A stretch of DNA of 64,000 nucleotides from Rhodospirillales bacterium. Its GTDB lineage: Bacteria > Pseudomonadota > Alphaproteobacteria > Rhodospirillales > JANQFP01. The notes under the pieces are model-generated. The model ran no database searches. It had not been told where the DNA came from and worked only from the letters and a program-made list of their open reading frames with translations. The stretch spans positions 3,751 to 67,750 of the forward strand of contig JANQFP010000208.1 in the NCBI GenBank assembly GCA_028277795.1. Reading direction: 5' to 3'. Every line of letters begins with the position of its first letter. The stretch's first letter is position 1. Position numbers and translations under genes: made by a program. Shown here in pieces: positions 535 through 56,921 of this stretch.

Positions 535-1875
535 CTAAGCGCCTTCGACGCCGAGGCGGCGCATCTGCCGCCACAGGGTGGTGCGGTCGATGCCCAGGGC
601 GCGCGCCGCCAGGGACCGGTTGCCCCCGGACCGGCGCAACGCGTCGGCGATCTCGGCGCGGCGTCGGCCGGCATCCTCCGATGGGACCGCGGCCAGGGGA
701 CGGGGGCCGCGCGAGCGGAACTCGCGGATATCCTGGGGCAGACTCTCCGGGACCACGGTGCCGTCGACGGCGCAGATGATGCCGTGCTCCACCGCGTTCT
801 CCAGCTCCCGCACGTTTCCCGGCCAGGGGTAGTCCATCATCATGCGCATGGCGTCCGGGCTGAAGTCGCCGCCCTGCGGATAGCCCCTTTGGCCGAGCTT
901 GGCGCAGAAATGCTCGAGCAGCAGAGGGAGGTCGCCGGGTCGCTGGCGCAAGGGCGGGACGAGCAGCGGGATGACGGCGAGCCGGTAGTAGAGGTCGGCG
1001 CGGAACCGTCCCGCATCCACCATTTCCCGGAGATTGCGGTTGGACGCGGTGATGACGCGGACGTCCACCTGCACGGGGGCGTCCGACCCCACCATCTCGA
1101 ACTGCTGGTCCTGCACCGCCCGCAACAGCGTGGCCTGGAGATGCAAGGGGATCTCGCCGACCTCGTCGAGAAGCAGGGTTCCGCGGTGAGCGGCCTGGAA
1201 GCGGCCCGGACGGTCCTGGGTGGCGCCGGTGAAGGCGCCTTTGACGTGGCCGAACAGCTCGGATTCGATCAGCGATTCGGGGATGGCCGCGCAGTTGACC
1301 TCGACGAAGGGGTAGTTGGCGCGGGTGCTCAGGCGGTGGATCATGCGCGCGATCTCGGTCTTGCCGGTGCCCGATTCCCCCTGCAGCAGGACGGAGGCGC
1401 TGGTGGCGGCGATCTGCTCCACCCGGGCCACGATCTCCAACATGCGGGGGTCGTTGCTGACCATCTCCTGCCGGGCCCGGTTGAACACCGCCTCCAGCCG
1501 GCGCCGGTCGGTGCGGTCGTGGGTGATCACCAAGCGCAGGGGGCGGTCGTGGTCGGGAACCTCGACCAGGCCGCTATGGCATTCCAGGTCGCGCACGGTG
1601 CCGTCGGCGCCGACCCGCTCCTCGAAGCGCACGAAGTTGCCCGGAGGGCGCCGTTCGCCGCCGCAAGCCCGGTCCAACGCCGCTTGCAGGTCGCACGGGC
1701 CGACCGCGTTCAGGGTGCGAATCGGTTCGTTGGGGGGCGCACCGAACATTTCACCCGCCGCCGGATTCTGGTATAGAACCTGTCCCCGCTCGTCGGCGAT
1801 AATGACTCCCTCATCCATGAAGGAAACAATCGCCTCCAAGAGGGGATAAAGGCTCAGCAGATCGAATCGCGGCAT
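535..1875 (-). CDS. Sigma-54-dependent transcriptional activator (PAS - AAA+ - Fis-type HTH)
   Basis: The PAS-like N-terminus reads [27 protein letters not shown]. The AAA+ domain has Walker A GESGTGKT and the GAFTGA sigma-54 contact loop. The C-terminal HTH reads [22 protein letters not shown] prefer the ATG at 1875 (MPRFDLL) over the track start at 1938, which overlaps a palindrome. Confidence 0.9.
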
Positions 1876-1923
1876 GGGGTTCTTTCCGGCGACGGCTCGC
1901 CACCCCGTTGTTGCACGGAGCGG

Positions 1924-1939
1924 CATGTTGCGCAACATG
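1924..1939. promoter_or_regulatory. Perfect 16-bp palindrome CATGTTGCGCAACATG, candidate enhancer (UAS) for the adjacent sigma-54 activator
   Basis: The palindrome is read directly from the sequence. It lies ~150 bp upstream of the -24/-12 element, and GTTGC(R) half-site-like motifs flank it (1908-1944 and 2016-2030). Confidence 0.45.
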
Positions 1940-3737: not shown

Positions 3738-6700
3738 ATGGCCGAGACCCAAACGCCGCACCAGCCCCAGGACCCGTCCGCCCACGCGCACGGCCACACC
3801 CTCGGGCTGGCCGGCCGTATGACCCGGGCCTTCATCCATTCGCCGCTGTCGCCTCTGCTGCTGCTGGCCAGCCTGTCGGTGGGCATTCTCGGCCTGCTGT
3901 TCACGCCGCGCCAGGAGGACCCGCAGATCTCGGTGCCGATGATCGACGTGTTCTTCGGCTACCCGGGCGCGTCGGCCGAGCAGGTGGCGAGCCTGGCGGT
4001 CGACCCCCTGGAGCGGATCATGAGCGAGATCCCGGGGGTCAAGCACGTCTACTCCGCCTCCCAGCGGGGCGGCGGCATGGTCACCGTGGAGTTCGACGTG
4101 GGCGAGGAGATGGAGCCTTCGCTGGTCAAGCTCTACGACAAGCTGATGTCCAACATGGACAAGGTGCCGCCCGGGGTCACCGAGCCCCTGGTCAAGCCCA
4201 AGGGGGTGGATGACGTCCCCGTCGTCACCCTGACCCTGTGGTCCCACGACCTGGACGACGCGGCCCTGCGCCTGATCGGCCTCGACGTGCTGCAGCGGCT
4301 CAAGGAGGTGCCCGACACCAGCCAGAGCTTCATCGTCGGCGGCCGGTCCGAGCAGATCCGGGTCGAGGTGTTCCCCGAGCGCTTGGCCGGCTACGGGGTC
4401 AGCGCCGGGCAACTGGCCCACACCATCTCCACCGCCAATGCGGAGCAGGGGGCCGGGTACGCGGAATCGGCGGGCGGCAGCTTCGAGCTCTACTCGGGCG
4501 CCTTCCTGACCCGCGCCGAGGACATCGAGCGCCTGGTGGTCGGCGTCCGCAACGGCGCCCCCATCTACGTGCGCGACGTGGCCCTGGTGCGCGAGGTCGC
4601 CGAGGAGACCCGGGCGCTGGTGCAGTACTACACCGGCAGGGCCTACGGGCAGGACTTCGAGAAGCGGTTCGACGTCAAGCCCCCGATCGAGGCCGGGGAC
4701 GGCACGCCGGCGGTCACCATCGCCGTGGCCAAGAAGCCCGGCACCAACGGCGTCACCGTGGCCGCCGCCATCCTCGAGCAGGTGGAGCAGCTCAAGGGGC
4801 GCATCATCCCTGACAACGTCCAGATCGCCGTCACCCGCAACTATGGCGAGACCGCCAACGACAAGGTCAACGAGCTGATCTTCAAGCTGTTCATCGCCAC
4901 CGGCGCGGTGACCCTGCTGATCTGGTTCTTCCTCGGCTTCCGCGCCGCGGTGGTGGTGCTGATCGTCATCCCGGTGGTCATCCTGGTCACCGTCTTCTCG
5001 GCCTGGCTGCTCGGCTACACCATCGACCGGGTGAGCCTGTTCGCCCTCATCTTCTCCATCGGCATCCTGGTCGACGACGCCATCGTGGTGATCGAGAACA
5101 TCTACCGCCGCTGGCTGATCAAGGGCGAAGTGGACACCGAGACCTCGGTGGACGCCGTCCGCGAGGTGGGCAACCCCACCATCCTGGCCACCTTCACGGT
5201 CATCGCCGCGCTGCTGCCCATGGGCTTCGTCAGCGGCATGATGGGGCCGTACATGGAGCCCATCCCGGTGCTCGGCTCGGTGGCCATGCTGTTCTCGCTG
5301 TTCGCCGCCTTCATCTTCACCCCCTGGCTGGCCATCCGCATCCGTCCCAGCCTGGCCAAGCTCGACAAGGCCCAGGTCAAGGAGCACCGCCAGTCGGAGC
5401 GCCTGGACGGGGTGTTCCGGCGCATGTTGACGCCGCTGATCGATCACCGGGGCCGCCAGGTCATGCTGCGGGTCAGCATCTACGCCGTGTTCGCGCTGCT
5501 GTGCGCCATGTTCTACACCACCCACGTCACGGTGAAGATGCTGCCGTTCGACAACAAGCCCGAGTTCAACGTGGTGGTGAACATGCCCGACGGCACGGCG
5601 CTGCCGGAGACCGCCAACGTCATCCAGCGCCTGAGCGAGGAGGTCCTCGACATCCCGGAGGTGGTCGCCATCCAGACCTACGCCGGCACGGCCTCGCCCT
5701 TCAATTTCAACGGCCTGGTCCGCCACTACTACCTCAGGCAGGACTCCTGGCAAGGCGACATCCAGATCCAGCTCCTGCACAAGAACGACCGCGAGCGGAG
5801 CAGCCATCAGATCGCGTCGGCGGCGCGCGAGGCCCTGACGCCCATTGCCAGCGATCTGGGCGCCAAGATCCAAATCGTCGAGATGCCGCCGGGACCGCCG
5901 GTGCTGCAGACCATCGTGGCCGAGATCTACGGGCCCGACCAGCACACCCGGCGCAAGGTGGCGCGCGACATCACCGGCCTGTTCGAGGAGGCGCCGAGCG
6001 TCGTCGACGTCGACAATTACCTGCAGGACCCCTACGAGATCTGGCGCTTCGTAGTCGACCGCGAGAAGGCGGTCCGGCGCGGCGTGTCGGTGGAGGACGT
6101 CAACACCCAGCTCGGCATGGTCATGGGCGACTTCAAGCTCGGCGACGTCAAGGTCGGACGGGTCCTGGAGCCGCGCTACATCACCCTGCAGGCTCCCATG
6201 GCCCTGCGCAGCCAATTCTCGCGCATGGGCGAGCTGCCGATCCCGTCGTCCCAGGGCAACCTGATCCCGCTGGGCGAGCTCGGCCAGTTCGAGCGCATCA
6301 CCCAGGATCCCATCGTATTCCACAAGGACCTGCGTCCCGTCGAGTACGTGACCGGCGACGTGGCCGGCCGCCTCGGTGCGCCCATCTACGGCATGCTGGA
6401 GGTCGAGGATCTCCTCGCGGATTACGTGGCGCCGGACGGTATCCGCGTGGAGACCGAGTACCTGGGACCGCCCAAGGACAGCTTCGCGTCGGCCTTCGAG
6501 TGGACCGGCGAATGGACGGTCACCTACGAGACCTTCCGCGACATGGGCCTGGCCTTCGCCGCCGCCATGGTCCTGATCTACATGCTGGTGGTGTGGGAGT
6601 TCGGCAACTTCCGGCTGCCGGGGATCATCATGGCGCCGATTCCGCTCACCTTGATCGGCATCATTCCGGGCCACTGGTTGTTCGACGCAGAGTTCACCGC

Positions 6701-7988: not shown

Positions 7989-8704
7989 TGGAATTCAGAT
8001 CGCTCACCTGTGCCGTGGCGTTCGTCGGCCTCGCCGGGCTGACCTGGGCCGGGACGGCGCTGGCGCAGGGCGCCGCGGTGCCGGCGCCGCCGGAAGGGCC
8101 GTACGCCTCGGGCGAATTGCCGCCCGTGCATACGACCGAGCCCGGCGGGGGCTTCCCGCCCCTCGACTACGATCCCAGGCGCGCCTCGGTGCCGCGACCG
8201 GCGTGGACCAAGCCCCGCGCTCCTTCGATGCAGCGGGTGATCCCGGCGTGGCGCCCGGTCGTGCCCCAGCCGCGGACGAGCCGGGAGCCGACCCCGCAGC
8301 GGGGAGAGCAGGCGCGGACGGCGACTCCGGCCGCACGGCCGTGGCCGGGACTGGTCCCCTACCGGATGCCGTCCGGGACCTTGCCTGCGACGCGTCCCTC
8401 CGCGTGGCCGGTGCCGCGGCCGGTAACGCCGCCGGCTCCGGCCGTGACGCGGCCGCAAGCGACCGCGCCCGCGCAGATCCCGAGTCCGGCGGCACCGGCA
8501 GGCGGGGCCATCAAGCCGGCCCGCCCGCCGGAATCGGCGCCCAAGGAGGCGCCGACGTACGCGCCCTTGCCGGAAGGCGAGGGCTCGGTGTGGCGTCCCC
8601 GCGGCGAGGACCGTGAGAGGGCGCCCTACCGTCCGTTCCGGCATGGAGCGTCGTCCTGGGGCGGCGCCGAATATGGCGCGTCGTCCGCCACGGACTCGCG
8701 TTGA
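7985..8704 (+). CDS. Exported proline-rich protein (hypothetical)
   Basis: A signal peptide is present (MMEFRSLTCAVAFVGLAGLTWAGTALAQG) and the rest is ~25% Pro. The start overlaps the RND stop (GTGATG). There is no recognisable domain. Confidence 0.5.
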   Translation: MMEFRSLTCAVAFVGLAGLTWAGTALAQGAAVPAPPEGPYASGELPPVHTTEPGGGFPPLDYDPRRASVPRPAWTKPRAPSMQRVIPAWRPVVPQPRTSREPTPQRGEQARTATPAARPWPGLVPYRMPSGTLPATRPSAWPVPRPVTPPAPAVTRPQATAPAQIPSPAAPAGGAIKPARPPESAPKEAPTYAPLPEGEGSVWRPRGEDRERAPYRPFRHGASSWGGAEYGASSATDSR

Positions 8705-8724
8705 ACCAGGTGATCGGAAGTCCC

Positions 8725-9732
8725 ATGACAAATTCCTTGGCGCGCCTCGTTCTCTCCGCCCTCGCCGTGGCCTCGCTGGCAGCCGGCGCGTGGGCCGGCA
8801 ACCCGTGGCAGAGCCAGTCCGACTACTACGGCGGGGCGCAGCAGCAGGCTCCGTCGTGGTCGACGCCGGCGCCCTACACGGCCGATACCCTGCTTCAGCG
8901 GGCCCGCCCCTCGGTCCCGTCGGCGCCCGGGGTGCAGCCCTACGGAGCGCCGGGCGCGCCGCACCAGGCGCCGACAACCGGGTACTACCCGGCGCCGCAG
9001 CAGCAGTACCCGGGTACCGCGCCGCAGTATCCGGCGCCGGGCTACGGGGCCGCACCGTCGGACCAGCCGGTCTATGGCGGGCAACCTGGCGGCTATGGCC
9101 CGGGGGACTACGGAGGCGGCATCCCGCCGACCCAATTCCCCTCGGCGGCCAGCCCTTATGCGCCGGGAGGGCAGGTCTACGCACCGCCCCTGTCCGAATA
9201 CCCGCCGCTCGACGATTCCGTGCCGCCGCGCGCCGGACCGCCGCCGGGGACCTACGCGCCGCCAGCCGGCTACGCGCCGCAGCAAACGGCCCCGACGTAC
9301 GCGGCTCCGCCGGCCGGCTATGCGACCCAGCAGCCGGCACCAAGCTACGCAGCGCCGCCGGCCGGCTACGCGACACAGCCGACGACCACCTACGCGCCGG
9401 CGGGGACGCAGGCCGCGCCGGTGATCACATACCCTCAGGCAACCGTGGTGGCGCCGCAAGTCGGCTATCCGGCCTACGGAGTGCCGGGGCTGGGATACGG
9501 CGGCCTCGGCCATCCGGGTCTGGGCTACGGTCTCGGGTACGGCGGCCTGGGCTACGGTCTGGGCTATCCGGGGCTGGGATACGGCGGCCTCGGCCATCCG
9601 GGCCTGGGCTACGGTCTCGGGTACGGAGGCCTTGGCCACGGTCTCGGGTATGGAGGTCTGGGTTACGGGGGTCTGGGTTACGGGGGGCTCGGTTATCCGT
9701 GGTTGGGCGGATTTCCGGGGCTCACATGGTGA
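8725..9732 (+). CDS. Exported Pro/Tyr/Gln-rich protein with a C-terminal GLGYG repeat array
   Basis: The signal peptide is MTNSLARLVLSALAVASLAAGAWA. It is followed by YAPP/YPAP repeats and then (P)GLGYGGLGH / GLGYG repeats, ending in GFPGLTW. The ATG at 8725 is preferred over the TTG at 8701. Confidence 0.6.
   Translation: MTNSLARLVLSALAVASLAAGAWAGNPWQSQSDYYGGAQQQAPSWSTPAPYTADTLLQRARPSVPSAPGVQPYGAPGAPHQAPTTGYYPAPQQQYPGTAPQYPAPGYGAAPSDQPVYGGQPGGYGPGDYGGGIPPTQFPSAASPYAPGGQVYAPPLSEYPPLDDSVPPRAGPPPGTYAPPAGYAPQQTAPTYAAPPAGYATQQPAPSYAAPPAGYATQPTTTYAPAGTQAAPVITYPQATVVAPQVGYPAYGVPGLGYGGLGHPGLGYGLGYGGLGYGLGYPGLGYGGLGHPGLGYGLGYGGLGHGLGYGGLGYGGLGYGGLGYPWLGGFPGLTW
9484..9651 (+). repeat. Two tandem 84-nt units (~92% identical) encoding 28-aa PGLGYGGLGHPGLGYGLGYGGLG(Y/H)GLGY
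   Basis: I aligned the two units by eye (9484-9567 against 9568-9651) and found 6-7 mismatches in 84 nt, in frame. Confidence 0.85.
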
Positions 9733-10904: not shown

Positions 10905-11783
10905 ATGCGGAAATACCTGTGGTTTCCCGCCGCAGTCTTCTTTCTCGCCGGCGCCGCCGGTGCCCAGGCGGGAAGCCCGTCGTTCACCGCGGACACCGTG
11001 CAGCGCCATCCCCAAGCCGGTGTGCAGCAGGGGCGCATCTTCGTCTCCGAGCTCGGGACGCGCATGGAGGGCAAGGACCAGCAGGGCCGCCAGGTGATCC
11101 AGATCACCCTGCCCAAGGAAGGCATCATGCGGGTGCTGTTCCCCGAAGAGGGGACCTACATGGAGGTCCAGGGGCCCAAGGCTCCGGCCCAGCCGATGCC
11201 CAAGCCGGACAACCCGTGCGCCATGGCGCCGCCGGAGAGCAAGTGCGAGCGGGTCGGCACCGAGACCCTGGGTGCGGTGGCGACCGAGCAGTATCGTTTG
11301 ACCATCAAGGACGCCAAGGGGCCGGTGACCGTCTGGTGGGATCCCCAGCGCAAGCTTCCCCTGCGCCAGGAGAACCCCGACGGCAGTTCCGTACAGCAGA
11401 CGCTTCGCGGCGAGACCCAGTACGAAGGCCGCCGGGTCGAGCACTGGGTGACGACCATGGTCACGCCGCAGGGACAGACCCATACCGTTCAGAGATGGGA
11501 CGACCTGGAACTCAAGATTCCCGTGTACCAGCAGTTGGGTGAAGGCACGACCAGCGAGTTGCACAACATCCGGCTGGTCAGTCCCGACCCGGCGTGGTAC
11601 CAGGTACCGCAGGGCTATCGGCGGGTGGAGCCCCAACAGCAGCAGCAACAGCAGCAGCCGCAGCAACAGCAGCGGCAGTGGGGCGCCCAGCCGCCCCCGC
11701 AACAGCCCAGGCAGCAGTGGCGCGGTCAGCCGCAGCAGCCGCAGCAGCAATGGGGGGGCCAGCGACCTGCCTGGCAGCGGTGA
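10905..11783 (+). CDS. Periplasmic LolA-like / DUF4412-like protein with a C-terminal polyglutamine tail
   Basis: The signal peptide is MRKYLWFPAAVFFLAGAAGAQA. A beta-rich body follows (RIFVSELGTRMEGKD..VIQITLPKEGIMRVLFPEEGTYMEV). The last ~50 aa read QQQQQQQQPQQQQRQWGAQPPPQQPRQQWRGQPQQPQQQW. The ATG at 10905 is preferred over the track start at 10785. Confidence 0.6.
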   Translation: MRKYLWFPAAVFFLAGAAGAQAGSPSFTADTVQRHPQAGVQQGRIFVSELGTRMEGKDQQGRQVIQITLPKEGIMRVLFPEEGTYMEVQGPKAPAQPMPKPDNPCAMAPPESKCERVGTETLGAVATEQYRLTIKDAKGPVTVWWDPQRKLPLRQENPDGSSVQQTLRGETQYEGRRVEHWVTTMVTPQGQTHTVQRWDDLELKIPVYQQLGEGTTSELHNIRLVSPDPAWYQVPQGYRRVEPQQQQQQQQPQQQQRQWGAQPPPQQPRQQWRGQPQQPQQQWGGQRPAWQR

Positions 11784-21956: not shown

Positions 21957-22904
21957 ATGAGCAAGAAGGCGGACCCGACGAAGCCGGGCAAGGGGAAGGC
22001 GAAAAAGGCCGACAAGCCGGAACCGCAGCAGCCCGCGCAGCCGACCCTTCGCGTCGTCGAAGACGCGGCGCCGGAACCCCACTACGATCGACCGATCGAG
22101 GAGATCCGGGGCGAGACAAAGGCCAAGCTCAAGAACCAATTCTACGAAGCGGAACTGGCCCGCCTGCAGGAAGAACTCGTCAAGCTGCAGGAATGGATCA
22201 AGCACAAGGGCCTGAAGGTGGTGGTCATCTTCGAGGGCCGCGATGCCGCCGGCAAGGGCGGCGTCATCAAGCGCATCATGCTCAGGCTCAACCCGCGCAT
22301 CTGTCGCGTCGTCGCCCTCGGCACGCCGACCGAGCGGGAGAAGACCCAGTGGTACTTCCAGCGCTATGTACCCCATCTGCCGGCGGCCGGGGAAATGGTC
22401 CTGTTCGACCGCTCCTGGTACAACCGGGCCGGGGTCGAGCGGGTGATGGGCTTCTGCACGCAGGAGGAACACCGGGAGTTCCTGCGCTCCTGCCCGGAGT
22501 TCGAGCGCATGCTGGTCCGTTCGGGCATCACCCTCATCAAGTACTGGTTCTCGGTCAGCGACGAGGAGCAGGAACGCCGCTTCCAGGGGCGCATCACCAA
22601 TCCGGTCAAGCGCTGGAAACTCAGCCCCATGGACCTGGAATCCCGCAAGCAGTGGCTGGAGTACTCGAAGGCCAAGGACGAGATGTTCGCCCACACGGAC
22701 ATCAAACAGGCGCCGTGGTATGTGGTCGAGGCCGACCAGAAGAAGCGGGCGCGGCTCAACTGCATCCGCCACCTGTTAAGCATGATCCCTTACGAGGACC
22801 TGACGCCCGAACCCATCGAGCTGCCGCCGCGGCAGCCCGACAGGGGCTACGTCCGACCGCCCATGGACGATCAGACCTTCGTGCCCGACGAATACGAAGA
22901 CTAA
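21957..22904 (+). CDS. ppk2: Polyphosphate kinase 2 (PPK2)
   Basis: The sequence VVVIFEGRDAAGKGGVIKRI is the Walker A region. QWYFQRYVPHLPAAGEMVLFDRSWYNRAGVERVMGF is the canonical PPK2 core. Confidence 0.9.
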   Translation: MSKKADPTKPGKGKAKKADKPEPQQPAQPTLRVVEDAAPEPHYDRPIEEIRGETKAKLKNQFYEAELARLQEELVKLQEWIKHKGLKVVVIFEGRDAAGKGGVIKRIMLRLNPRICRVVALGTPTEREKTQWYFQRYVPHLPAAGEMVLFDRSWYNRAGVERVMGFCTQEEHREFLRSCPEFERMLVRSGITLIKYWFSVSDEEQERRFQGRITNPVKRWKLSPMDLESRKQWLEYSKAKDEMFAHTDIKQAPWYVVEADQKKRARLNCIRHLLSMIPYEDLTPEPIELPPRQPDRGYVRPPMDDQTFVPDEYED

Positions 22905-22916
22905 GGAAACCGGCTG

Positions 22917-23531
22917 TCAGGCCGACTCGAGGTCACGCGGCGAGACGAACCCCTCGAGGCGGCAGCTGCCCGGAGCGAGGGCCGCCCAGTCCCCGGTCTC
23001 GCAGGTCAGCACGGCCAGGGCCCCGGTCGGGTACTTGTCGGTCATGCGTTGGTGGGCCGCCCCGTCGCCGCGGCCGGCCAGCGCCGTGGCCAGGATCTCG
23101 AGGCCGGGGTTGTGGCCAATCATCATCACCGACGGCACGGATGGGTCCAGGGTCTGCAGGCGGCGCAGGAGGTCGCCGGCGTCGGCCTCGTAGAGATCCC
23201 GTTCCACGTGGGTGGCGACGCCGCCACCCAATGCGCCTTCGATCAGCGCCAAGGTGTCGCGGGTCCGCCGCGCTGCCGAGCACAGGACCATGTGGGGCCG
23301 CAATCCATGGCGACGCAGGTGCTCGGCCATCAGCTTGCCGGCGCGGCGGCCGCGCTTGGCCAGCGGGCGGTCGAAGTCGTCCAGCGACAGGTCCTTCCAC
23401 GAGGACTTGGCATGACGCAGCAGATAGATGGTCTTCAGCGTCGGTGCGGCGGGCTTTTTGGCGGACCGCTTCGCGTCTTTCTTGCCTGCCTTCCCCTCGG
23501 TGCCGGCCTTGGGCCCGGGGTCGGCCATCAT
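22917..23531 (-). CDS. Histidine phosphatase superfamily protein (SixA-like)
   Basis: The RHA motif is in IYLLRHAKSSW and the second His is in MMIGHNPG. The ATG-ATG start at 23531 overlaps the stop of the upstream ppk2 (ATGA). The track ORF reaching 24110 is a run-on. Confidence 0.8.
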   Translation of the reverse strand: MMADPGPKAGTEGKAGKKDAKRSAKKPAAPTLKTIYLLRHAKSSWKDLSLDDFDRPLAKRGRRAGKLMAEHLRRHGLRPHMVLCSAARRTRDTLALIEGALGGGVATHVERDLYEADAGDLLRRLQTLDPSVPSVMMIGHNPGLEILATALAGRGDGAAHQRMTDKYPTGALAVLTCETGDWAALAPGSCRLEGFVSPRDLESA

Positions 23532-24487
23532 GAGGTCGGCGAGCCCGGCCCGGCGCGGCGGGGCAGGACGGAATCGGGCCCGCTGTCGCGGAGCTCGACG
23601 AAGTTGGATGCCGGGCCGACGATCTTCGGGTCGGGCGTCATCGCCACGGCAGGGTTCTTGTCCGGATAGGGAAGGGCCGTCAGCAGGTGCCGCATGCAAT
23701 TGAGGCGGGCCCGCTTCTTGTCGTCCGACTTGACGATGGTCCACGGGGCGTCGGTGGTGTCGGTGTGGAAGAGCATGGCCTGCTTGGCCGCCGTGTAGTC
23801 GTCCCACTTGTCGAGGGACTGCTTGTCGATGGGGCTGAGCTTCCACTGTTTCAGGGGGTCCGTGCGCCGGGACGCGAAACGCCGCGACTGCTCGGCGCGG
23901 CTTACCGAGAACCAGTACTTGAACAGGAGAGTGCCGCTGTTCACCAGCATGCGCTCGAACTGCGGCGCCTGGCGCAGGAACTCCAGGTACTCGGTGTCGG
24001 TGCAGAACCCCATGACGATCTCGACCCCGGCGCGGTTGTACCAGGAGCGGTCGAACAGGACGATCTCGCCCTTCGAGGGCAGGTGGGTCACGTAGCGCTG
24101 GAAGTACCACTGGCCGCGCTCGCGCTCGGTGGGCTTCTCCAGGGCCACAACCTGGGCGCCGCGGGGATTGAGGTGCTCCATGAACCGCTTGATGGTGCCT
24201 CCCTTGCCGGCGGCGTCGCGGCCCTCGAAGATGAGCAGCACCTTCTGCCCGGTGTCGCGCACCCAGCTCTGCACCTTCAGGAGCTCGGTCTGCAGCTCCA
24301 TCTTGGTGCCCTCGTACTCCCGGCGCCGCATCTTAATGCGGTAGGGGTAGTCGGGGTCGAGGATGCGCTTGCGCAGCGGGATGGCCGGGTCGTCCAGGGC
24401 GTCCGGGTGCGCCGGCGACGGATCGGCGGTTTCCGCCACGTCCGCGAGGTCGGCAGGGTCGCGTTGATCGGGCTCGGTTTCCGGCAT
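23528..24487 (-). CDS. ppk2: Polyphosphate kinase 2 (PPK2), second paralog
   Basis: VLLIFEGRDAAGKGGTIKRF and QWYFQRYVTHLPSKGEIVLFDRSWYNRAGVEIVMGF are both present. The ATG at 24487 is preferred over the TTG at 24505. Confidence 0.9.
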   Translation of the reverse strand: MPETEPDQRDPADLADVAETADPSPAHPDALDDPAIPLRKRILDPDYPYRIKMRRREYEGTKMELQTELLKVQSWVRDTGQKVLLIFEGRDAAGKGGTIKRFMEHLNPRGAQVVALEKPTERERGQWYFQRYVTHLPSKGEIVLFDRSWYNRAGVEIVMGFCTDTEYLEFLRQAPQFERMLVNSGTLLFKYWFSVSRAEQSRRFASRRTDPLKQWKLSPIDKQSLDKWDDYTAAKQAMLFHTDTTDAPWTIVKSDDKKRARLNCMRHLLTALPYPDKNPAVAMTPDPKIVGPASNFVELRDSGPDSVLPRRAGPGSPTS

Positions 24488-24667
24488 GGCACGATCGAAT
24501 GGCAAATGGGTGTCGGAGGTGATTTCGACCCTACCACAAGATCATGACAGGAACTATCACGGTCCCGGCCGCGGGCCCGTCGATGGCCTGGAACCCGCCG
24601 CCCGTGGTGTGGTAACGCAGGAGACGGCCCCGAGGTCGGGCCGGGCACGGGCAGGGAGCGGCGGGGC

Positions 24668-37187: not shown

Positions 37188-37330
37188 CGAGCGGGAGCCC
37201 CTCATTTGCGTCGCCGTGCCGAACGGTGTTGACTGCCCGGTCGTTCGTCCGTTGAATGGCGCCCGTGCCGGACGCGGACACCCCGGAGGGCCCGGAAGAC
37301 CGCGCACGGGGGGAAGGGAAGGACGTCCGC

Positions 37331-37801
37331 ATGGGTGAAGTACAAGGCCTGCGGATGCTGTTGAAGCAGCATCCGTTCTTCAAGGGTTTGGATGCAGAGA
37401 CCTACGAGCTGCTCGACGGCTGTGGCGCCAACGAGGTCTTCAACGAAGGCGACATGGTGTTCCGCGAGGGACAGCCGGCCGACAAGCTCTACCTGATCCG
37501 GGTCGGCGAGGTCGACCTCCAGCATGGCGGGCCCGGCGGCGATATCACCCCCATCCAGACCCTGCGCGACGGCGACGTCCTCGGCTGGTCGTGGCTGGTG
37601 CCGCCGTATTCCTGGCGGTTCAGCGCCCAGGCCAAGAAGCGGACACGGCTGATCAGCCTGGACGCCAACTGCCTGCGCAACAAATGCGACGAGAACCACG
37701 ACGTCGGCTACGCCATCGCCATGCGCATCGCCACCGTGGTCCTCGACCGGCTGACGGCGCTCCGCCTCAAGATGGTCAAGGGAGAGCGTTTGGGCCAGTA
37801 G
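37331..37801 (+). CDS. Cyclic-nucleotide-binding-domain protein (stand-alone cNMP domain)
   Basis: LLKQHPFFKGLDAETYELLDGCGANEVFNEGDMVFREGQPADKLYLIRVGEV has a CAP/PKA-type cNMP-binding beta-roll pattern. No DNA-binding HTH is evident. Confidence 0.7.
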   Translation: MGEVQGLRMLLKQHPFFKGLDAETYELLDGCGANEVFNEGDMVFREGQPADKLYLIRVGEVDLQHGGPGGDITPIQTLRDGDVLGWSWLVPPYSWRFSAQAKKRTRLISLDANCLRNKCDENHDVGYAIAMRIATVVLDRLTALRLKMVKGERLGQ

Positions 37802-39190: not shown

Positions 39191-39255
39191 TACCGGCGCG
39201 CCTTCGAGCCCACTCGCGAAGCGCCGTCATGGCGCGCCGGAAAGCCCGCGCGGCG
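39191..39255. repeat. 65-nt palindromic intergenic repeat, copy A (CCGGCGCGCC-N28-GGCGCGCCGG plus an AAGCCCGCGCGGCG tail)
   Basis: It is ~92% identical (5 mismatches in 65 nt) to 55722-55786. Both copies start within 10 nt of a plus-strand stop codon. Confidence 0.85.
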
Positions 39256-51462: not shown

Positions 51463-51977
51463 TTATTCGTTAACGGATTCTATTGTAAAGCCCTTTTCTC
51501 CCAGGCGAATCAGCACGTTGTCGATCTGATCGAGACGGGCGCGGTGGTCGCCGTCGGTGTAGTAGTTGGCGAACACGAAGCTGCCCACGGCGGTGGCGGC
51601 GTTGTGCGGCATGGGCGTCGGGTCGACCCGCTGGCCGGGCACCAGCTCCCATTCCAGGGCCTCGTAGCCGGAGGGGAAGTCGCGGCGGAACTGGTCGCGC
51701 TGGCGGAACCATTGGCGGGCCGGCAGCTCGCCCAAGCGGTCCATCATGTCCTCGTCGTAGATGATCAGCACGTCGACGGCCACCGGGTTGTCCTCGTTGG
51801 CCCACGGCGACACCTGGATCTGGATCTCCTTGGTCTTGAAGGCAGTGACCTCGAACACCGGCACCGGCACCGGGATGATGCCGCCGCAACCCGCCACCGC
51901 CAGGAGCAGCGCGGCGGCGGCCAGGGTGGCCAGCCGGCGAGCCCAGGAGCGGGGCCGGGGCGCGGCGCTGTTAACCA
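51463..51977 (-). CDS. tssJ: T6SS outer-membrane lipoprotein TssJ-like
   Basis: The ATG at 51977 is followed by the lipobox LAVAGC. The protein is about 170 aa and lies immediately upstream of tssK. The assignment rests mainly on position and size. Confidence 0.6.
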
Positions 51978-52170
51978 TGTTTCGCCCCACATGTTGTGGG
52001 CGCGCCACACCGCCGCCACGAATATTTGTCCTTACGCGCAACCGTTTCACAGTATTGTTCACCATACCTTTCAGTAAACGGCCGAACGAGTCCTGGTGGA
52101 ATCCATAACGCGAAAAATGGTCATCGAGAGGTTCGTTGCGGACTCCGTAGGACTCGTTCCCAATTCTCAG

Positions 52171-52184: not shown

Positions 52185-52201
52185 CACGACTTAGCATATT
52201 G

Positions 52202-52231
52202 TTGACACAAAAAGGAATCGCCGTCTATGTT
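52202..52231 (+). promoter_or_regulatory. Sigma-70-like promoter (TTGACA - 18 nt - TATGTT) for the SPOR-domain gene
   Basis: The -35 hexamer is exact and the -10 matches in 4 of 6 positions. It lies ~40 nt upstream of the ATG at 52268. Confidence 0.35.
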
Positions 52232-52267
52232 TTATGGTCGCTGACGGACGGACGGTCCTTGACGGCC

Positions 52268-53113
52268 ATGGCGGGCGAATCGATCCATACGGTACGGCAC
52301 GGGGACGCCGGGCTCTTCGGAGTCGGAGTGGCCGGCTCGCCGTTCGCGCATCCCATCGCGCCGGCGGCGGGCGAGGGTGTCGTTATGACCGAGCCGGTGC
52401 GCGGCGGCGGGGCCTGGCGCGACGCCGTGGCGCCGATGACCGCGCCGGTCATTGCGCTGACCCGCGGCCTGGTGGTGGCGGTGTCCGCCGGTCTGGTGGT
52501 CGCCGGGCTCAGCCTGTTCTGCGCCGGGCTCCTGGTCGGCCTCAGCCTGGGCCACGGACTGGTGGCGGCCAGCGGCGCCGGGGGGGGCGGCATGCGGCTC
52601 ACCGGCCCGACCGTGACCGCGGCCGCAGGCATGGGCGCCACCATGGCCGAGGCGGCGGCCCCGGCCGGCGTGGACGCGCCGCCGCCGGTCGTCGACCGGC
52701 CGCCGGACCCTGCGCCGGTGGCGAGCACCGCCCCGGCACCGGTGGCGCCGGCGCCGGCCGTGCCCGAGGAGAACGACCCGGTGCCGGCGGCCGAGCCAGC
52801 CGCGCCCGCGCCGGACCCTCAACCCTTGGTGCGACCGACGCTCCGACCCAAGCCCGCGCCGTCGGCGGGTGCCTATGCGGTCCAGGTCGGTGCCTTCCTG
52901 GTGCCGGGCAACGCCGAGGCGGCGAGCCGTGCCCTGGCGGCCAAGGGCCTCGACGCCTACCGCGTGCAGCGCACCGACCGGCGGGGGCGGACCTGGCACC
53001 TGGTGCGCGTCGGCCGGTTCGGTGGGCGCGGGCACGCCGTGGCCCTGGCCGGACGCCTGGGAGATCAGGGCACGCCCGGGTTCGTGGTCGCCCTGAAAGA
53101 CGCCGGCGGCTGA
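52268..53113 (+). CDS. Membrane-anchored SPOR-domain (peptidoglycan-binding) protein
   Basis: The TM segment is LVVAVSAGLVVAGLSLFCAGLLVGLSL. A Pro/Ala-rich linker follows. The C-terminal SPOR pattern is YAVQVGAFLVPGNAEAASRALAAKGLDAYRVQRTDRRGRTWHLVRVGRF. The start could instead be at 52385. Confidence 0.75.
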   Translation: MAGESIHTVRHGDAGLFGVGVAGSPFAHPIAPAAGEGVVMTEPVRGGGAWRDAVAPMTAPVIALTRGLVVAVSAGLVVAGLSLFCAGLLVGLSLGHGLVAASGAGGGGMRLTGPTVTAAAGMGATMAEAAAPAGVDAPPPVVDRPPDPAPVASTAPAPVAPAPAVPEENDPVPAAEPAAPAPDPQPLVRPTLRPKPAPSAGAYAVQVGAFLVPGNAEAASRALAAKGLDAYRVQRTDRRGRTWHLVRVGRFGGRGHAVALAGRLGDQGTPGFVVALKDAGG

Positions 53114-53282
53114 CGGCTCCCCACAATTTGTGTTCGGGTTCGGTAAAAGCCGCACCATCTCGCACGTCCTACTAGAACGAGCATATTGGCGCCTGGCCTT
53201 GCTCCATATATAGTGCCCATAGGCCGACGGGTGGCCCCATCGGGGCTGCGCGGCCGGCACGGGCACAACGGCGGCAGAGGCC

Positions 53283-53483
53283 ATGGCGGACGTGGAGCCC
53301 CGGATCCGGGTGGTCCCGGGCCGGGCGGAGTGGATGGGCAAGGGCGTCTGCGGCCGCGCCGGCGGGCGGGTGGTGGCGTCGCGGGACGTGCGCCTGCCCC
53401 TGGCCAAGCCGGCGCGCGAGCCGGAGCGGCGCCGCGAACGCATCATCATCACCGCCGACGTCGTTCCGGGCCGCGCCCGCTGA
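53283..53483 (+). CDS. Possible small basic protein (66 aa)
   Basis: The ATG is preceded by GAGG, and GC at third codon positions is above 90%, consistent with coding sequence in this genome. I see no recognisable domain. Confidence 0.3.
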   Translation: MADVEPRIRVVPGRAEWMGKGVCGRAGGRVVASRDVRLPLAKPAREPERRRERIIITADVVPGRAR

Positions 53484-53558
53484 CCCATTATCCTTGGGCG
53501 CGCCCGACCGGACTATGCTAGCGTCACCCCGGATTGCCCCGGACGGATCGGTGCGGCC

Positions 53559-55721
53559 ATGACCCAATCGCGCGGTGGCGACGGCGCCGCGAGACCGCCG
53601 AAGGGCCGGCTCGTCCGCGGATCGCTGCAGTTCAACATCCTGATCATCTTCATCAGCCTGCTGGTGGCCATGACCGTCAGCGTGGCTTGGTACACCTATC
53701 AGAAGCAGTCCGAGGCGATCCTCGATCTGTCCGAGGACATCATCCACCAGGTCAGCGCCACCGCCATCGAGAAGACCGTCCGCTACCTGGAACCGCTGCG
53801 CCAGGCGGCGGAGACCACGGCCGCCGTCGCCGGCCGCGCCGCCTTCCTCGACCGCCGGCCGGAGCTGGTCGCCTACCTGGTCCGGACCCTGGCCGTGCAC
53901 GACCACTTCTACAGCCTCTACGTGGGCTACGCCGACGGCGATTTCCTGCAGGTCATCACCCTGCCGGAGGGCCTGCAGCGGTTCCGCCCCGACGACATGG
54001 CCGTGCCGCCGGGCGCCGTCCGCGTGGTGCGGCTCCTCGACCGGGACGGCGAGGACGCCGTCGAGACCTGGACCTACGTGGACGCCGACGGCCGCACCCT
54101 GGCCGTCGGGGAATCGTCCGAGGTGGTGTTCGACCCGCGGGTGCGCCCGTGGTACCAGGGCGCCGAGCAATCAGACGGGGCCTTCTGGAGCGACCTTTAC
54201 GTCTTCTTCAGCCTCGGCAAGCCGGGGCTGACCGCATCCAGCCCGGTGCGCGGCGCCGCTGGCGGCATCGAGGGCGTGGTCGGCGCCGACGTGGCGCTGG
54301 ACGCCCTGTCGGCCTTCCTCGCCGGCCAGCACATCGGGCAGTCGGGCGCGGCGTTCATCATCAACTCCCGCGACGAGCTGGTCGCCTTTCCCGATCCGGC
54401 GCGGGTGGTCGCCACCGACGGCGGCCGGCCGCGGCCCGTGGTCATCGACGAGCTCGGCGAGGCCGGCCTGTCGGCGGCGGTGGCGGCGCGCCGGGAGGGC
54501 GGCGCCGCGCGCGCCATCGTCGAGGCCGACGGCATCAGCTTCATCTCCGCCTTCACCGCCTTTCCGCCGTCCTTCGGCAAGGACTGGACCATCGGCGTCG
54601 TGGTGCCGGTGGACGACTTCGTCGGCACCGTCAAGGAGACCAACCAGACCAGCCTCGCCATTTCGCTGGTGGTGCTGCTGGTCGGCATCGTCGTCATCGT
54701 CGTCGTCTCGCGCTGGATCTCCCGGCCCATCCGCAACCTGGCCGGGGAGGCGCGCAAGATCCGCGACCTGGACCTGGACGGCACCATCGAGGTGCCGTCC
54801 CACGTGGCCGAGGTCCGCGAGCTGGCCGAATCCATGGGCGCCATGAAGACCGCCGTCCAGGCCCTGGGCAAGTTCGTGCCCAAGGGCCTGGTGCAGGAGC
54901 TGATGGACAGCGGCGTCGAGATCGAGCTCGGCGGCCGCAACCGCGAGCTGACGGTGATGTTCACCGACATCGACGGCTTCGCCACCATCTCCGAGCACAT
55001 GGCGCCCGAGGCCCTGATGCTGCAGGTCTCCGACTACTTCGAGGAGCTGACCGTGGTCCTGCGCGACCACCGGGCCACCATCGACAAGTACATCGGCGAT
55101 TCGATCATGGCCTTCTGGGGGGCGCCCGCCGCCAACCTCGATCACGCCGGCGACGCCTGCATGGCCGTTCTGTTCGCCGACCGGCGGACCCAGGCGTTGA
55201 ACGCGCAATGGCGCGGCACCGGCAAGCCGTCCTTCGTCACCCGGTTCGGCCTGCATTGCGGCGAGACCGTGGTCGGCACCCTCGGCTCCTCGGAGCGCAT
55301 GAGCTACACGGTGCTCGGCGACACCGTGAACCTGGCCTACCGGCTCGAAGGCCTCAACAAGACCTACGGAACCCGCATCTGCGTCAGCCAGGACATCCAC
55401 GGCCGGGTCGAGGACCGCTTCCTCCTGCGGCCGCTGGACATCGTGGCGGTGAAGGGCCGCCAGCAGGGGACCTTCGTCTACGAGCTGCTGGGCGCCCGCG
55501 AAGGCGACCCGGACGTGGTCGCGCGGGCCCCCGACTACCGGCGGTGCCGCATGACGGAGGAGGGAATCGACGCTTACCTCGGCCGCCGCTGGGGCAAGGC
55601 CATCGCCGTGTTCACCGACCTGGCCGACGCCTTTCCCGACGACGGCCTGCCCGGCGTCTACCTGCCGCGGCTCAACGCCTACCGGACCCATCCGCCGCCG
55701 GATGACTGGAGAGGCATTTGA
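53559..55721 (+). CDS. Transmembrane Cache-HAMP class III adenylate/guanylate cyclase
   Basis: TM1 is ILIIFISLLVAMTVSVAWYTY. The periplasmic region is dCache-like (DPRVRPWYQGA). TM2 plus a HAMP domain follow (VVSRWISRPIRNLAGEARKI). The cyclase core contains VMFTDIDGFATISE and YIGDSIMAFWGAP. Confidence 0.9.
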   Translation: MTQSRGGDGAARPPKGRLVRGSLQFNILIIFISLLVAMTVSVAWYTYQKQSEAILDLSEDIIHQVSATAIEKTVRYLEPLRQAAETTAAVAGRAAFLDRRPELVAYLVRTLAVHDHFYSLYVGYADGDFLQVITLPEGLQRFRPDDMAVPPGAVRVVRLLDRDGEDAVETWTYVDADGRTLAVGESSEVVFDPRVRPWYQGAEQSDGAFWSDLYVFFSLGKPGLTASSPVRGAAGGIEGVVGADVALDALSAFLAGQHIGQSGAAFIINSRDELVAFPDPARVVATDGGRPRPVVIDELGEAGLSAAVAARREGGAARAIVEADGISFISAFTAFPPSFGKDWTIGVVVPVDDFVGTVKETNQTSLAISLVVLLVGIVVIVVVSRWISRPIRNLAGEARKIRDLDLDGTIEVPSHVAEVRELAESMGAMKTAVQALGKFVPKGLVQELMDSGVEIELGGRNRELTVMFTDIDGFATISEHMAPEALMLQVSDYFEELTVVLRDHRATIDKYIGDSIMAFWGAPAANLDHAGDACMAVLFADRRTQALNAQWRGTGKPSFVTRFGLHCGETVVGTLGSSERMSYTVLGDTVNLAYRLEGLNKTYGTRICVSQDIHGRVEDRFLLRPLDIVAVKGRQQGTFVYELLGAREGDPDVVARAPDYRRCRMTEEGIDAYLGRRWGKAIAVFTDLADAFPDDGLPGVYLPRLNAYRTHPPPDDWRGI

Positions 55722-55786
55722 CACCGGCGCGCCTTTGAACCGACTCGCGAAGCGCCGTCATGGCGCGCCGGGAAGCCCGCGCGGCG
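55722..55786. repeat. 65-nt palindromic intergenic repeat, copy B
   Basis: See copy A at 39191-39255. The arms CCGGCGCGCC (55724-55733) and GGCGCGCCGG (55762-55771) can form a 10-bp stem directly after the cyclase stop codon. Confidence 0.85.
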
Positions 55787-55866
55787 CTTGAGCGCCACCG
55801 CCTTCGCGTGAAGTGGCCCGGAGGGTCATTTCATCAGCGGGGCGGTATGGTGCGGGGTCGGTGCCG

Positions 55867-55998
55867 CCGGTCTGTCGTGTCATAAATCTGTCGTGTGCGG
55901 AGTCTGTCGCGTGGCCAGTCAGTCGCGTCGGCGCGTGACTCGGGCAGGTATGCGTCCGGCCGCCCCGGCGTCTGTCGCGCCGCATCTCTGTCGCGTCG
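55867..55998 (+). repeat. Array of TCTGTCG(Y)GT direct repeats with an exact 16-bp period
   Basis: Units begin at 55871, 55887, 55903 and 55919 (TCTGTCGTGT, TCTGTCGTGT, TCTGTCGCGT, TCAGTCGCGT). A second block begins at 55971 and 55987 (TCTGTCGCGC, TCTGTCGCGT). The array lies 385-510 bp upstream of tssB. Confidence 0.8.
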
Positions 55999-56273
55999 GG
56001 TCGACCCGTCGTCGCGAAGATTTCATGGGCGCGGGCGAGAGAAAGGGAGGGTGTGTTTTCCTCGGTCGAAGGAAAACCCAATAATGGCCTGGGGCGGGGT
56101 CGGGCCCGCGAGCCGGACCGCCGGATTCGAAAGAAGTGCCTGATTCGACGGTGATTCACCGATTTGTCCCCAACGCGGGCGGCGAGTGCCGATTCAGGAT
56201 CTGCCAACCTCGGCTGTCCTTCAACCCATCATGTTGGGGCCTTTATGGTTAACGGACTTCAGTCTTATTCCGT

Positions 56274-56292
56274 GAAAAAAACTATTTTTTTC
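56274..56292. promoter_or_regulatory. A7/T7 palindrome GAAAAAAA-cta-TTTTTTTC upstream of tssB
   Basis: It is a perfect 8+8 inverted repeat. It is the most AT-rich element in the window and lies 90 nt upstream of the tssB ATG. Confidence 0.4.
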
Positions 56293-56381
56293 GGGACTCG
56301 TTCCTGATAACCTCTGTCAACGACCCATAATAATGCCTCCACTTACTTGTGGAGTCGTTGAGTCCAGATAGAGCAGGGTAA

Positions 56382-56921
56382 ATGGCGGAAAGTATCCAAC
56401 ACAAACTCGACCGGGTTCGCCCGCCGCGGGTGCAGATCACCTACGACGTCGAGATCGGCGGCGCCATCGTGATGAAGGAGCTTCCCTTCGTCGTCGGCAT
56501 CCTGGCCGATCTCTCCGGCATGCCGGCCGAGCCCCTTCCCAAGCTCAAGGAGCGCAAGTTCGTCGAGATCGACCGCGACAACTTCAACGACGTGCTGGCC
56601 TCGGCCGCGCCGCGCCTGGCCTTCCGGGTGGACAACAAGCTCACCGAGGACGACACCCAGCTCAACGTCGAGCTCCACTTCAACAACATCGACGATTTCG
56701 AGCCGGTCAGCGTGCTCAAGCAGGTCGAGCCCCTGCGCCAGTTGTTCGAGGCGCGCCTGCGTCTGCGCGACCTGCTGGCCAAGCTCGACGGCAACGACGA
56801 CCTGGATGCGCTCCTGCGCGAGGTCATCGAGAGCACGGATCAGCAGGCCGAGCTGCGCAAGGCGATCGAGGCGGCCGCGCCCCAGGAAGAAGGCGGCGGC
56901 AAGGGCAAGGGCAAGAAGTAG
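56382..56921 (+). CDS. tssB: T6SS contractile sheath small subunit TssB (VipA)
   Basis: SIQHKLDRVRPPRVQITYDVEIGGAIVMKELPFVVGILADLSG is the canonical TssB N-terminus. Confidence 0.95.
   Translation: MAESIQHKLDRVRPPRVQITYDVEIGGAIVMKELPFVVGILADLSGMPAEPLPKLKERKFVEIDRDNFNDVLASAAPRLAFRVDNKLTEDDTQLNVELHFNNIDDFEPVSVLKQVEPLRQLFEARLRLRDLLAKLDGNDDLDALLREVIESTDQQAELRKAIEAAAPQEEGGGKGKGKK

Follow-up and report, generated by a model that had tools for sequence, protein, structure and literature searches.

We found an array of six co-oriented 10-nt cores with the consensus TCTGTCGYGT, packed into 126 bp of the 660-bp intergenic region between a cyclase gene and tssB in a 64,000-nucleotide stretch of alphaproteobacterial DNA (hereafter the window). 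Our preferred reading, held tentatively and at slightly less than even confidence, is that the array consists of iterated sites for a putative DNA-binding protein, which would either provide the tssB operon with an input from a distance or form an insulator behind the cyclase gene. The start-to-start distances are 16, 16, 16, 52, and 16 bp. An initial annotation of this DNA had given the coordinates of the six units, their 16-bp spacing, and the 52-bp offset of the second pair exactly as we measured them; it had also rated the cores as conserved at 8–10 of 10 positions, and they are in fact slightly better, at 9–10 of 10. The units and the weaker sequences around them are listed here.

55871..55928, plus strand: block 1, four TCTGTCGYGT cores exactly 16 bp apart from start to start, their 6-nt spacers unrelated
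55871, plus strand: unit 1, core TCTGTCGTGT, spacer CATAAA
55887, plus strand: unit 2, core TCTGTCGTGT, spacer GCGGAG
55903, plus strand: unit 3, core TCTGTCGCGT, spacer GGCCAG
55919, plus strand: unit 4, core TCAGTCGCGT, 1 mismatch to TCTGTCGYGT, spacer CGGCGC
55971..55996, plus strand: block 2, two cores 16 bp apart, 52 bp past unit 4
55971, plus strand: unit 5, core TCTGTCGCGC, 1 mismatch to TCTGTCGYGT, spacer CGCATC
55987, plus strand: unit 6, core TCTGTCGCGT, spacer CGGGTC
55936..55945, plus strand: possible decayed unit TGACTCGGGC, 5/10, 17 bp past unit 4; weak, not significant alone
56005..56017, plus strand: possible degenerate seventh unit CCCGTCGTCGCGA, containing GTCGTCGCG, 6/10 in either of two registers, 18–21 bp past unit 6; weak
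55848..55867, plus strand: left copy of a bracketing 20-nt direct repeat, TGGTGCGGGGTCGGTGCCGC, 17/20 identity to the right copy
56090..56109, plus strand: right copy of the same repeat, TGGGGCGGGGTCGGGCCCGC, 17/20 identity to the left copy

Units 5 and 6 with their flanks (55966-55999) form a 34-nt module that is 79% identical to units 3 and 4 (55898-55931), the two agreeing in their cores and outer flanks (CGGnG...CGG) and differing in the inner spacer. A T variant at core position 8 is common to units 1 and 2. Both the likeness of the two modules and this shared variant suggest that the array expanded as modules of two sites, each about 32 bp or some three helical turns long, were duplicated. 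The copies of the 20-nt direct repeat enclose the array plus the next 90 bp; when the array was masked and the sequence shuffled, one shuffle in 200 gave an equally good match.

The array stands out in the window. At no more than one mismatch, TCTGTCGYGT has ten matches in the 64 kb, six of them in the array; the remaining four lie scattered and agree with a chance expectation of 7.5 across the window. In-phase plus-strand pairs at up to two mismatches occur in the array only; of 375 shuffled upstream regions, one contained a chain of at least three units. When the 64 kb were scanned generically for phased 8-mers (up to one mismatch, at least four units, period 9–30), the array and two coding repeats were the only sites returned. 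One coding repeat, at 9560-9700, is a 15-nt (pentapeptide) Gly/Tyr/Leu-rich, GGTCTCGGGTACGGA-like repeat in the Pfam-less ORF 8701-9732, and the other is a CAG trinucleotide run near 11637 (11637-11680).

Mismatches to the column consensus number 4 of 60 in the cores and 17 of 36 in the spacers (Fisher p=5.8e-6), in agreement with the conserved core and unconserved spacers that the initial annotation had described. Near-invariant cores with random spacers exclude a plain slipped duplication, and this asymmetry argues for selection on a 10-bp recognition site. A slippage product or simple tandem repeat would need the whole unit to be conserved, and Tandem Repeats Finder did not call the array region, as expected when merely 10 of the 16 columns repeat. 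We also scanned 185,579 species genomes, a collection that does not include the source genome, for two cores at 16-bp distance. The 24 exact two-unit matches came from unrelated taxa and were nearly all 16-bp tandem duplications in which the spacers had been copied too. Ordinary short tandem duplications can share the 16-bp period, and even the 10-mer, by chance (TCTGTCGTGTGAAAGC three times in L003/L020, TCTGTCGTGTCGTGGG three times in L009). Such duplications copy the whole unit including the spacer, whereas the spacers of the array share no more than composition. Given the core-conserved, free-spacer pattern and the comparison with the 24 matches, iterated recognition sites, as first proposed, are a better reading than a slipped duplication.

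The array lies on the same strand as tssB, 386–511 bp upstream of its ATG at 56382, close to the 385–510 bp given initially. The features that frame it are the following.

53559..55721, plus strand: upstream gene, a dCache-HAMP-adenylate/guanylate cyclase of 720 aa (Pfam), with its stop at 55721
55723..55786, plus strand: dispersed 64-nt GC-rich hairpin (REP-like) directly after the cyclase stop; the left boundary of the array, not part of it
56382..56921, plus strand: downstream gene tssB (VipA), first of the tssB-tssC-hcp-tssE-tssF-tssG operon (Pfam)

Upstream on the opposite strand are tssK, tssL, tssM, and tssA, then an orphan gene, with a plus-strand SPOR-domain gene between the orphan gene and the cyclase. 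Because tssK-L-M-A lie on one side and tssB-C-hcp-E-F-G on the other, the cyclase and the array are inside the T6SS cluster and not at its edge. The GC content of the array segment and its surroundings is 0.64–0.73, with an AT-rich dip (0.40–0.46) at 56200-56380 that holds a sigma-70-like promoter. Among the approximately 44 annotated large ORFs of the window, we found no transcription-factor gene near the array. The only transcription factor among the annotated ORFs is a PAS-sigma54-activator-HTH_8 regulator (535-1938, minus strand), 54 kb from the array.

The REP-like element had been taken for a terminator repeat belonging to the cyclase. The element is there, but it is not a private terminator, as it is dispersed: a 94% identical copy lies at 39192-39255. 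It has 10-bp perfect inverted arms (55724-55733 and 55762-55771), and both 64-nt copies sit just 3' of the stop codon of a plus-strand gene. An independent Logan assembly (SRR20820740) of the source organism breaks at the copy after the cyclase. Between this element and the array, at 55841-55852 and 20 bp upstream of the array, is GGCGGTATGGTG, which resembles the RfaH ops element, GGCGGTAGnnTG, in 11 of 12 positions; this is probably a chance match in a GC-rich genome.

We considered whether the periodicity reflects coding sequence or RNA. Four ORFs overlap the array (55758-56207 on the minus strand; 55893-56084, 55895-56143, and 55813-55938 on the plus strand), and all have flat GC content over the three codon positions, with GC3 of 0.62–0.69 compared to 0.92–0.95 in real genes. 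The initial annotation had presented 55893-56084 as the only ORF over the array and as spurious in appearance; it is one of four, and its flat GC1/2/3 does look spurious. A coding repeat in a small ORF was rejected because 16 is not a multiple of 3 and the codon-position GC bias is absent. A structured RNA (riboswitch, sRNA, or leader) was rejected because Rfam covariance models gave no relevant match at E<=1 in the array region and the predicted fold is no better than that of shuffled sequences (z = +1.01 on the plus strand and -0.16 on the minus strand). A transcribed small RNA or small-ORF repeats, which the annotation had named as what would overturn its reading, thus found no support in codon GC, Rfam, or folding.

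Unstructured RNA could still be the substrate: UCUGUCGYGU in the 3' UTR of the cyclase gene or in a long tssB leader, or ACRCGACAGA on an antisense transcript, would give an RNA-binding protein or a small RNA a linear platform with multiple sites. Several RNA-binding proteins recognize repeated short linear motifs with free spacers in this way, and no clear intrinsic terminator with a U-tract lies 3' of the cyclase gene, so read-through transcription across the array is plausible. We nevertheless consider such a platform quite unlikely. In addition to the negative Rfam and folding results on both strands, promoter prediction finds no promoter upstream of the array, inspection shows no GGA (CsrA/Rsm-type) motif on either strand of the repeat motif, and the plus strand at the array is G-/T-rich rather than C-rich and so not rut-like. 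We know of no RNA-binding counterpart to the strict 16-nt period.

The arrangement of co-oriented short repeats in a tight block followed by a second block formally resembles replication or partition iterons, or the subterminal transposase or integrase repeats at the end of a mobile element. Like the array, RepA/TrfA iterons and the ParR/omega/ParG centromere repeats are iterated, co-oriented binding repeats in blocks. Unlike them, the array has no cognate rep or par gene and no adjacent AT-rich unwinding element, and it lies in a chromosomal T6SS context. A Pfam scan of the approximately 44 large ORFs of the window found no rep, ParA/ParB or related, integrase, or transposase domain, and core T6SS genes flank the array on both sides. 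The 16-bp period is shorter than that of plasmid iterons (usually 17–22 bp) or TnsB/MuA-type sites (about 19–22 bp) and differs from the 7–11 bp of centromere repeats. The two-core pattern had 0 matches in viral contigs, and 55787-56200 matched no plasmid or phage sequence in a distant BLAST search. Plasmid or chromid iterons were rejected on the grounds that the nearest genes are the cyclase and tssB, with no initiator, that the period is 16 bp, and that the surroundings are 64–73% GC; the only AT-rich stretch near the array is the conserved tssB promoter, 250 bp away. A transposon-end or integrase-arm array was rejected because the 64 kb contain no inverted partner array and no such gene and T6SS genes lie on both sides, although the other end could fall outside the window, so this exclusion is not absolute. 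Taken together, the reading of the array as replication or partition iterons or as a mobile-element end is barely credible, and the term 'iteron-like' used in the initial annotation holds in its loose sense alone.

The source lineage is isolated, the next-best TssB being 79% identical and the next-best cyclase 47%. The closest TssB relatives are from Rhodospirillales and Magnetovibrionaceae MAGs. The initial annotation had proposed a check of related T6SS loci, and this gave no comparable array: none of the 75 usable related tssB upstream regions (from 80 metagenome loci) has a comparable phased array, and we did not find the array in the syntenic loci L001, L112 (the same Magnetovibrionaceae-type sequence), and L110 (a Rhodospirillales MAG). 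The cyclase was found in 0 of the 80 metagenome tssB loci, and distant cyclase homologues are not T6SS-linked. The absence from the 75 regions and three syntenic loci leaves the array with no phylogenetic footprint, and it was also rejected as a conserved T6SS promoter element because it is missing from orthologous tssB upstream regions.

The gene order of the syntenic loci is SPOR, a small ORF, the cyclase, two extra minus-strand genes (150 and 193 aa), and tssB. The extra genes are placed as follows.

L001 5161-5613 and 5859-6440 (= L112 4062-4514 and 4760-5341; L110 276-857), minus strand: orphan genes of the relatives, no Pfam match

The 150-aa orphan has an acidic Pro/Glu-rich tail, and the two could be T6SS accessory or effector/immunity genes. 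The window lacks both genes between the cyclase and tssB, and tblastn found no remnant of them, on which ground we rejected the GC-rich segment as their decayed remnant; a minus-strand 149-aa ORF in the window has no similarity to the 150-aa gene of L001 and was rejected as its counterpart. Directly upstream of the start codon of the 150-aa gene, L001 has a 14-bp tandem repeat, GTCTCTGsCTGTTG, in three to four copies (5621-5707, = L112 4522-4608), with another copy 48 bp on. The sole string that it shares with the array is a 10-mer at E=1. We rejected it as a counterpart of the array because it is a plain duplication in which the whole 14-nt unit is copied (86–90% identical) and because it is missing in L110.

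In the window (52199-55721), L112 (381-3952), and L001 (1480-5051), a SPOR-domain gene and a dCache-HAMP cyclase lie between two divergent T6SS operons, an arrangement kept in the Magnetovibrionaceae MAG though its cyclase is merely 47% identical. This hints that cyclic-nucleotide signalling may be tied to this T6SS subtype. Elsewhere in the window, 37256-37801 encodes a protein with a cNMP-binding domain alone.

In these relatives it is the tssB-proximal sequence that is conserved. Two elements were delimited there.

56245..56252, plus strand: ATGGTTAA box, 130 bp upstream of the tssB ATG; candidate operator
56253..56331, plus strand: tssB core-promoter block, from the alignment of the window (56253-56320), L001 6912-6975 (L001/L112), and L110 1452-1515

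The core-promoter block contains an GAAAAAAA-N3-TTTTTTTC palindrome (56274-56292), GACTC at 56295, and CTGwTAA (in the window CTGATA, 56304-56309). A promoter scan found a sigma-70-like pair, CTGATA-16-CATAAT, which ends at 56331 and overlaps the conserved block. The ATGGTTAA boxes are more frequent than expected in the window (2 versus 0.14), L112 (4 versus 0.12), and L110 (2 versus 0.11). Their positions, as ATGGTTAA or TTAACCAT, are 56245-56252 and 51971-51978 (minus strand) in the window, 4715, 5527, 5561, and 5729 in L112, and 1205 and 1374 in L110. Most copies adjoin tssB, and one L112 copy is upstream of the 150-aa gene instead. The copy at 51971 coincides with what is probably the orphan gene's start codon and may be there by chance. 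The ATGGTTAA box is probably a conserved operator of this T6SS subtype, and we treat it as a candidate.

The array lies approximately 310–430 bp upstream of the conserved tssB promoter, and the conserved control region with the ATGGTTAA boxes is about 250–430 bp downstream of the array. The promoter block and the boxes are conserved in the related T6SS loci examined, none of which has the array, a contrast that speaks against an essential role for it; since all of the conserved elements are tssB-proximal, the array falls outside the conserved control region and is, by this comparison of loci, a lineage-specific, private addition of this genome. The same pattern fits an array that is a relic or functionless, its sites having served genes since lost or being a duplication of two-site modules no longer used. 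That no relative has kept the array, that the window interval lacks the two genes present in L001/L112/L110, that the conserved control elements are all elsewhere, and that the array bears signs of duplication (module 3-4 resembles 5-6, and the 20-nt repeats bracket it) are all compatible with decay. We place this reading on the unlikely side. The cores are near perfect (56/60) and the spacers fully randomized, a combination that calls either for constraint still in force or for a function lost only very recently; the window holds no trace of lost genes, and the relatives' own repeat at this place is a different, plain 14-bp tandem duplication that is missing in L110.

In our preferred reading of the array as iterated protein-binding sites, the six (possibly seven or eight) co-oriented 10-bp sites would be bound by a sequence-specific DNA-binding protein. 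The array would be a distal regulatory region of upstream activating or repressing sites and would supply the T6SS operon with a further input beyond the conserved control elements, which sit nearer tssB. In an alternative role, the bound protein would be a roadblock to read-through from the cyclase gene and would shield tssB from it. As the initial annotation had noted, a 16-bp period puts successive sites on alternating faces of the helix, 16/10.5 being 1.5 turns. The sites appear to form three two-site modules (units 1-2, 3-4, and 5-6) of about 32 bp each, roughly three helical turns. The paired sites of a module lie on opposing faces of the helix, and each site shares its face with its equivalent in the next module. 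Some ribbon-helix-helix systems put successive dimers on different helix faces. Several findings count against the binding-site reading: the only regulator recognized in the window lies 54 kb off, the array is absent from relatives, and 310–430 bp is long for direct activation of a sigma-70-type promoter. No sigma-54 promoter (GG-N10-GC) scores in the cyclase–tssB intergenic region, and we rejected a sigma-54 promoter with an enhancer-binding protein for this reason. The existence of a binding protein, its type, its target operon, and the sense of its effect are points that we infer.

As binder we would guess at a winged-helix response regulator of the OmpR/PhoB type, or at a protein of similar specificity, because the core starts with CTGTC (Pho and tor boxes start with CTGT) and one junction between units is close to a canonical Pho box. 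Decameric direct-repeat boxes are an established architecture for regulators of this type, as the tor boxes show (PMC9239176): the torCAD promoter has four decameric direct repeats, CTGTTCATAT, bound by TorR, one of them weaker at 7/10. The tor boxes share with the four-core block of the array a CTGT start and one imperfect box among four; they differ after CTGT, and TorR is an enterobacterial TMAO regulator, whereas the array has no TMAO-respiration context. The period conflicts with this guess. Half-sites in OmpR/PhoB-family direct repeats are typically 10–11 bp apart, about one helical turn, with tandem monomers on one face (PMC9275681, PMC4415409). A 16-bp period is 1.5 turns, and on this basis we rejected the array as a standard operator of the family (tor boxes, ArcA, CenR, ChvI). 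The ChvI motifs TTGC-N3-GCAA and GCC-N8-GCC (PMC9731502), the CenR motif (TGA-N8-TGA), and the Nla28 motif do not match the array core.

The junction in question is a single feature.

55877..55894, plus strand: Pho-box-like 18-mer GTGTCAT-AAAT-CTGTCGT, spanning the end of unit 1, the AT-rich spacer, and the start of unit 2

PHO boxes consist of 11-nt direct-repeat units with 7 conserved positions (CTGTCAT) and 4 less conserved, A/T-rich ones (PMC4415409, PMC3131613, our source for the consensus), so that the monomers line up head-to-tail along a single DNA face. PhoB binds them in head-to-tail tandem at 11 bp (PMC4415409). The same consensus applies in rhizobia (PMC3131613), and PhoB is known from P. 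aeruginosa and E. tarda as a regulator of T6SS genes (PMC12351708). The 18-mer has the 11-bp phasing, 12 of 14 core positions, and a 4-nt A/T spacer. No other site in the window matches with two or fewer mismatches; 0 of 300 Markov-simulated windows had one when the A/T spacer was required, and such a junction arises in 8 of 20,000 arrays with randomized spacers, making it very unlikely by chance even given the array. These figures concern a resemblance found post hoc, after comparison with many motif families, and at up to three mismatches the window has 2 Pho-box matches versus 2.05 by chance.

An array that is an operator for PhoB would couple T6SS expression to phosphate limitation. Like the array, PHO boxes are co-oriented direct repeats, often in multiples upstream of regulated operons, with a core that begins CTGTC and a less conserved remainder, and CTGTCGY agrees with the half-site CTGTCAT at 5–6 of 7 positions. 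The documented control of T6SS by PhoB elsewhere and the shared rhizobial consensus also speak for such an operator, as does the position of the window's only other Pho-like match, next to the start of ppk2. The array differs from a PHO box in its 16-bp period and 10-nt core, and five of the six cores have G for A relative to the PHO-box consensus, four of them also C for T. Only one of the five junctions resembles a Pho box; the other units repeat at 16 bp and not 11, leaving isolated half-sites incompatible with 11-bp tandem binding (PMC4415409). The count at up to three mismatches equals chance, and we found no phoB gene in the 64-kb window. Pho boxes normally replace the -35 element, whereas this site is about 420 bp from the promoter. 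A PhoB operator therefore seems to us unlikely.

The other Pho-like match, CTGTCAT-GATC-TTGTGGT (3 mismatches), is at 24533-24550 on the minus strand and precedes the start of the ppk2 (polyphosphate kinase 2) gene at 23528-24505 by 28–45 bp; a second ppk2 is at 21957-22904. A Pho-like site before ppk2 would be biologically plausible and is compatible with chance.

We also considered a recognition mode that has not been described, in which a regulator linked to the cyclase would bind 10-bp sites every 16 bp. The regulator would possibly be controlled by cyclic nucleotide from the adjacent Cache-HAMP cyclase, and its protomers, on alternating faces, would build a three-module nucleoprotein structure with a period of about 32 bp that gates transcription of the T6SS sheath genes. 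We judge an operator of this kind distinctly improbable.

Direct-repeat arrays of regulator sites upstream of operons are commonplace, and the array would be a familiar kind of cis-regulatory architecture with an unusual 16-bp period. If it is a working operator, a poorly studied alphaproteobacterial lineage has added a private input to a conserved T6SS promoter, and the 1.5-turn spacing would be an unusual geometry for regulators that bind direct repeats. The Pho-box link, if true, would couple the firing of the T6SS to limiting phosphate in the way known from Pseudomonas and Edwardsiella. Not conserved in the related loci compared, the array is of value as a clean, easily testable bait and not as a discovery in itself, and since it is restricted to one genome among those compared, its putative role stays a modest lead.

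The intergenic region is also rich in GANTC (CcrM-type methylation) sites, with 10 in 660 bp (55722-56381) compared to 1.6 expected from the window rate (P=6e-6), at 55742, 55900, 55937, 56124, 56142, 56153, 56191, 56295, 56352, and 56360. Four GATTC lie within 70 bp (56124-56195), and two of these belong to the copies, 18 bp apart, of an 11-nt direct repeat, GCCkGATTCGA. This enrichment suggests that the T6SS promoter may be under cell-cycle or epigenetic (GcrA/CcrM-like) control.
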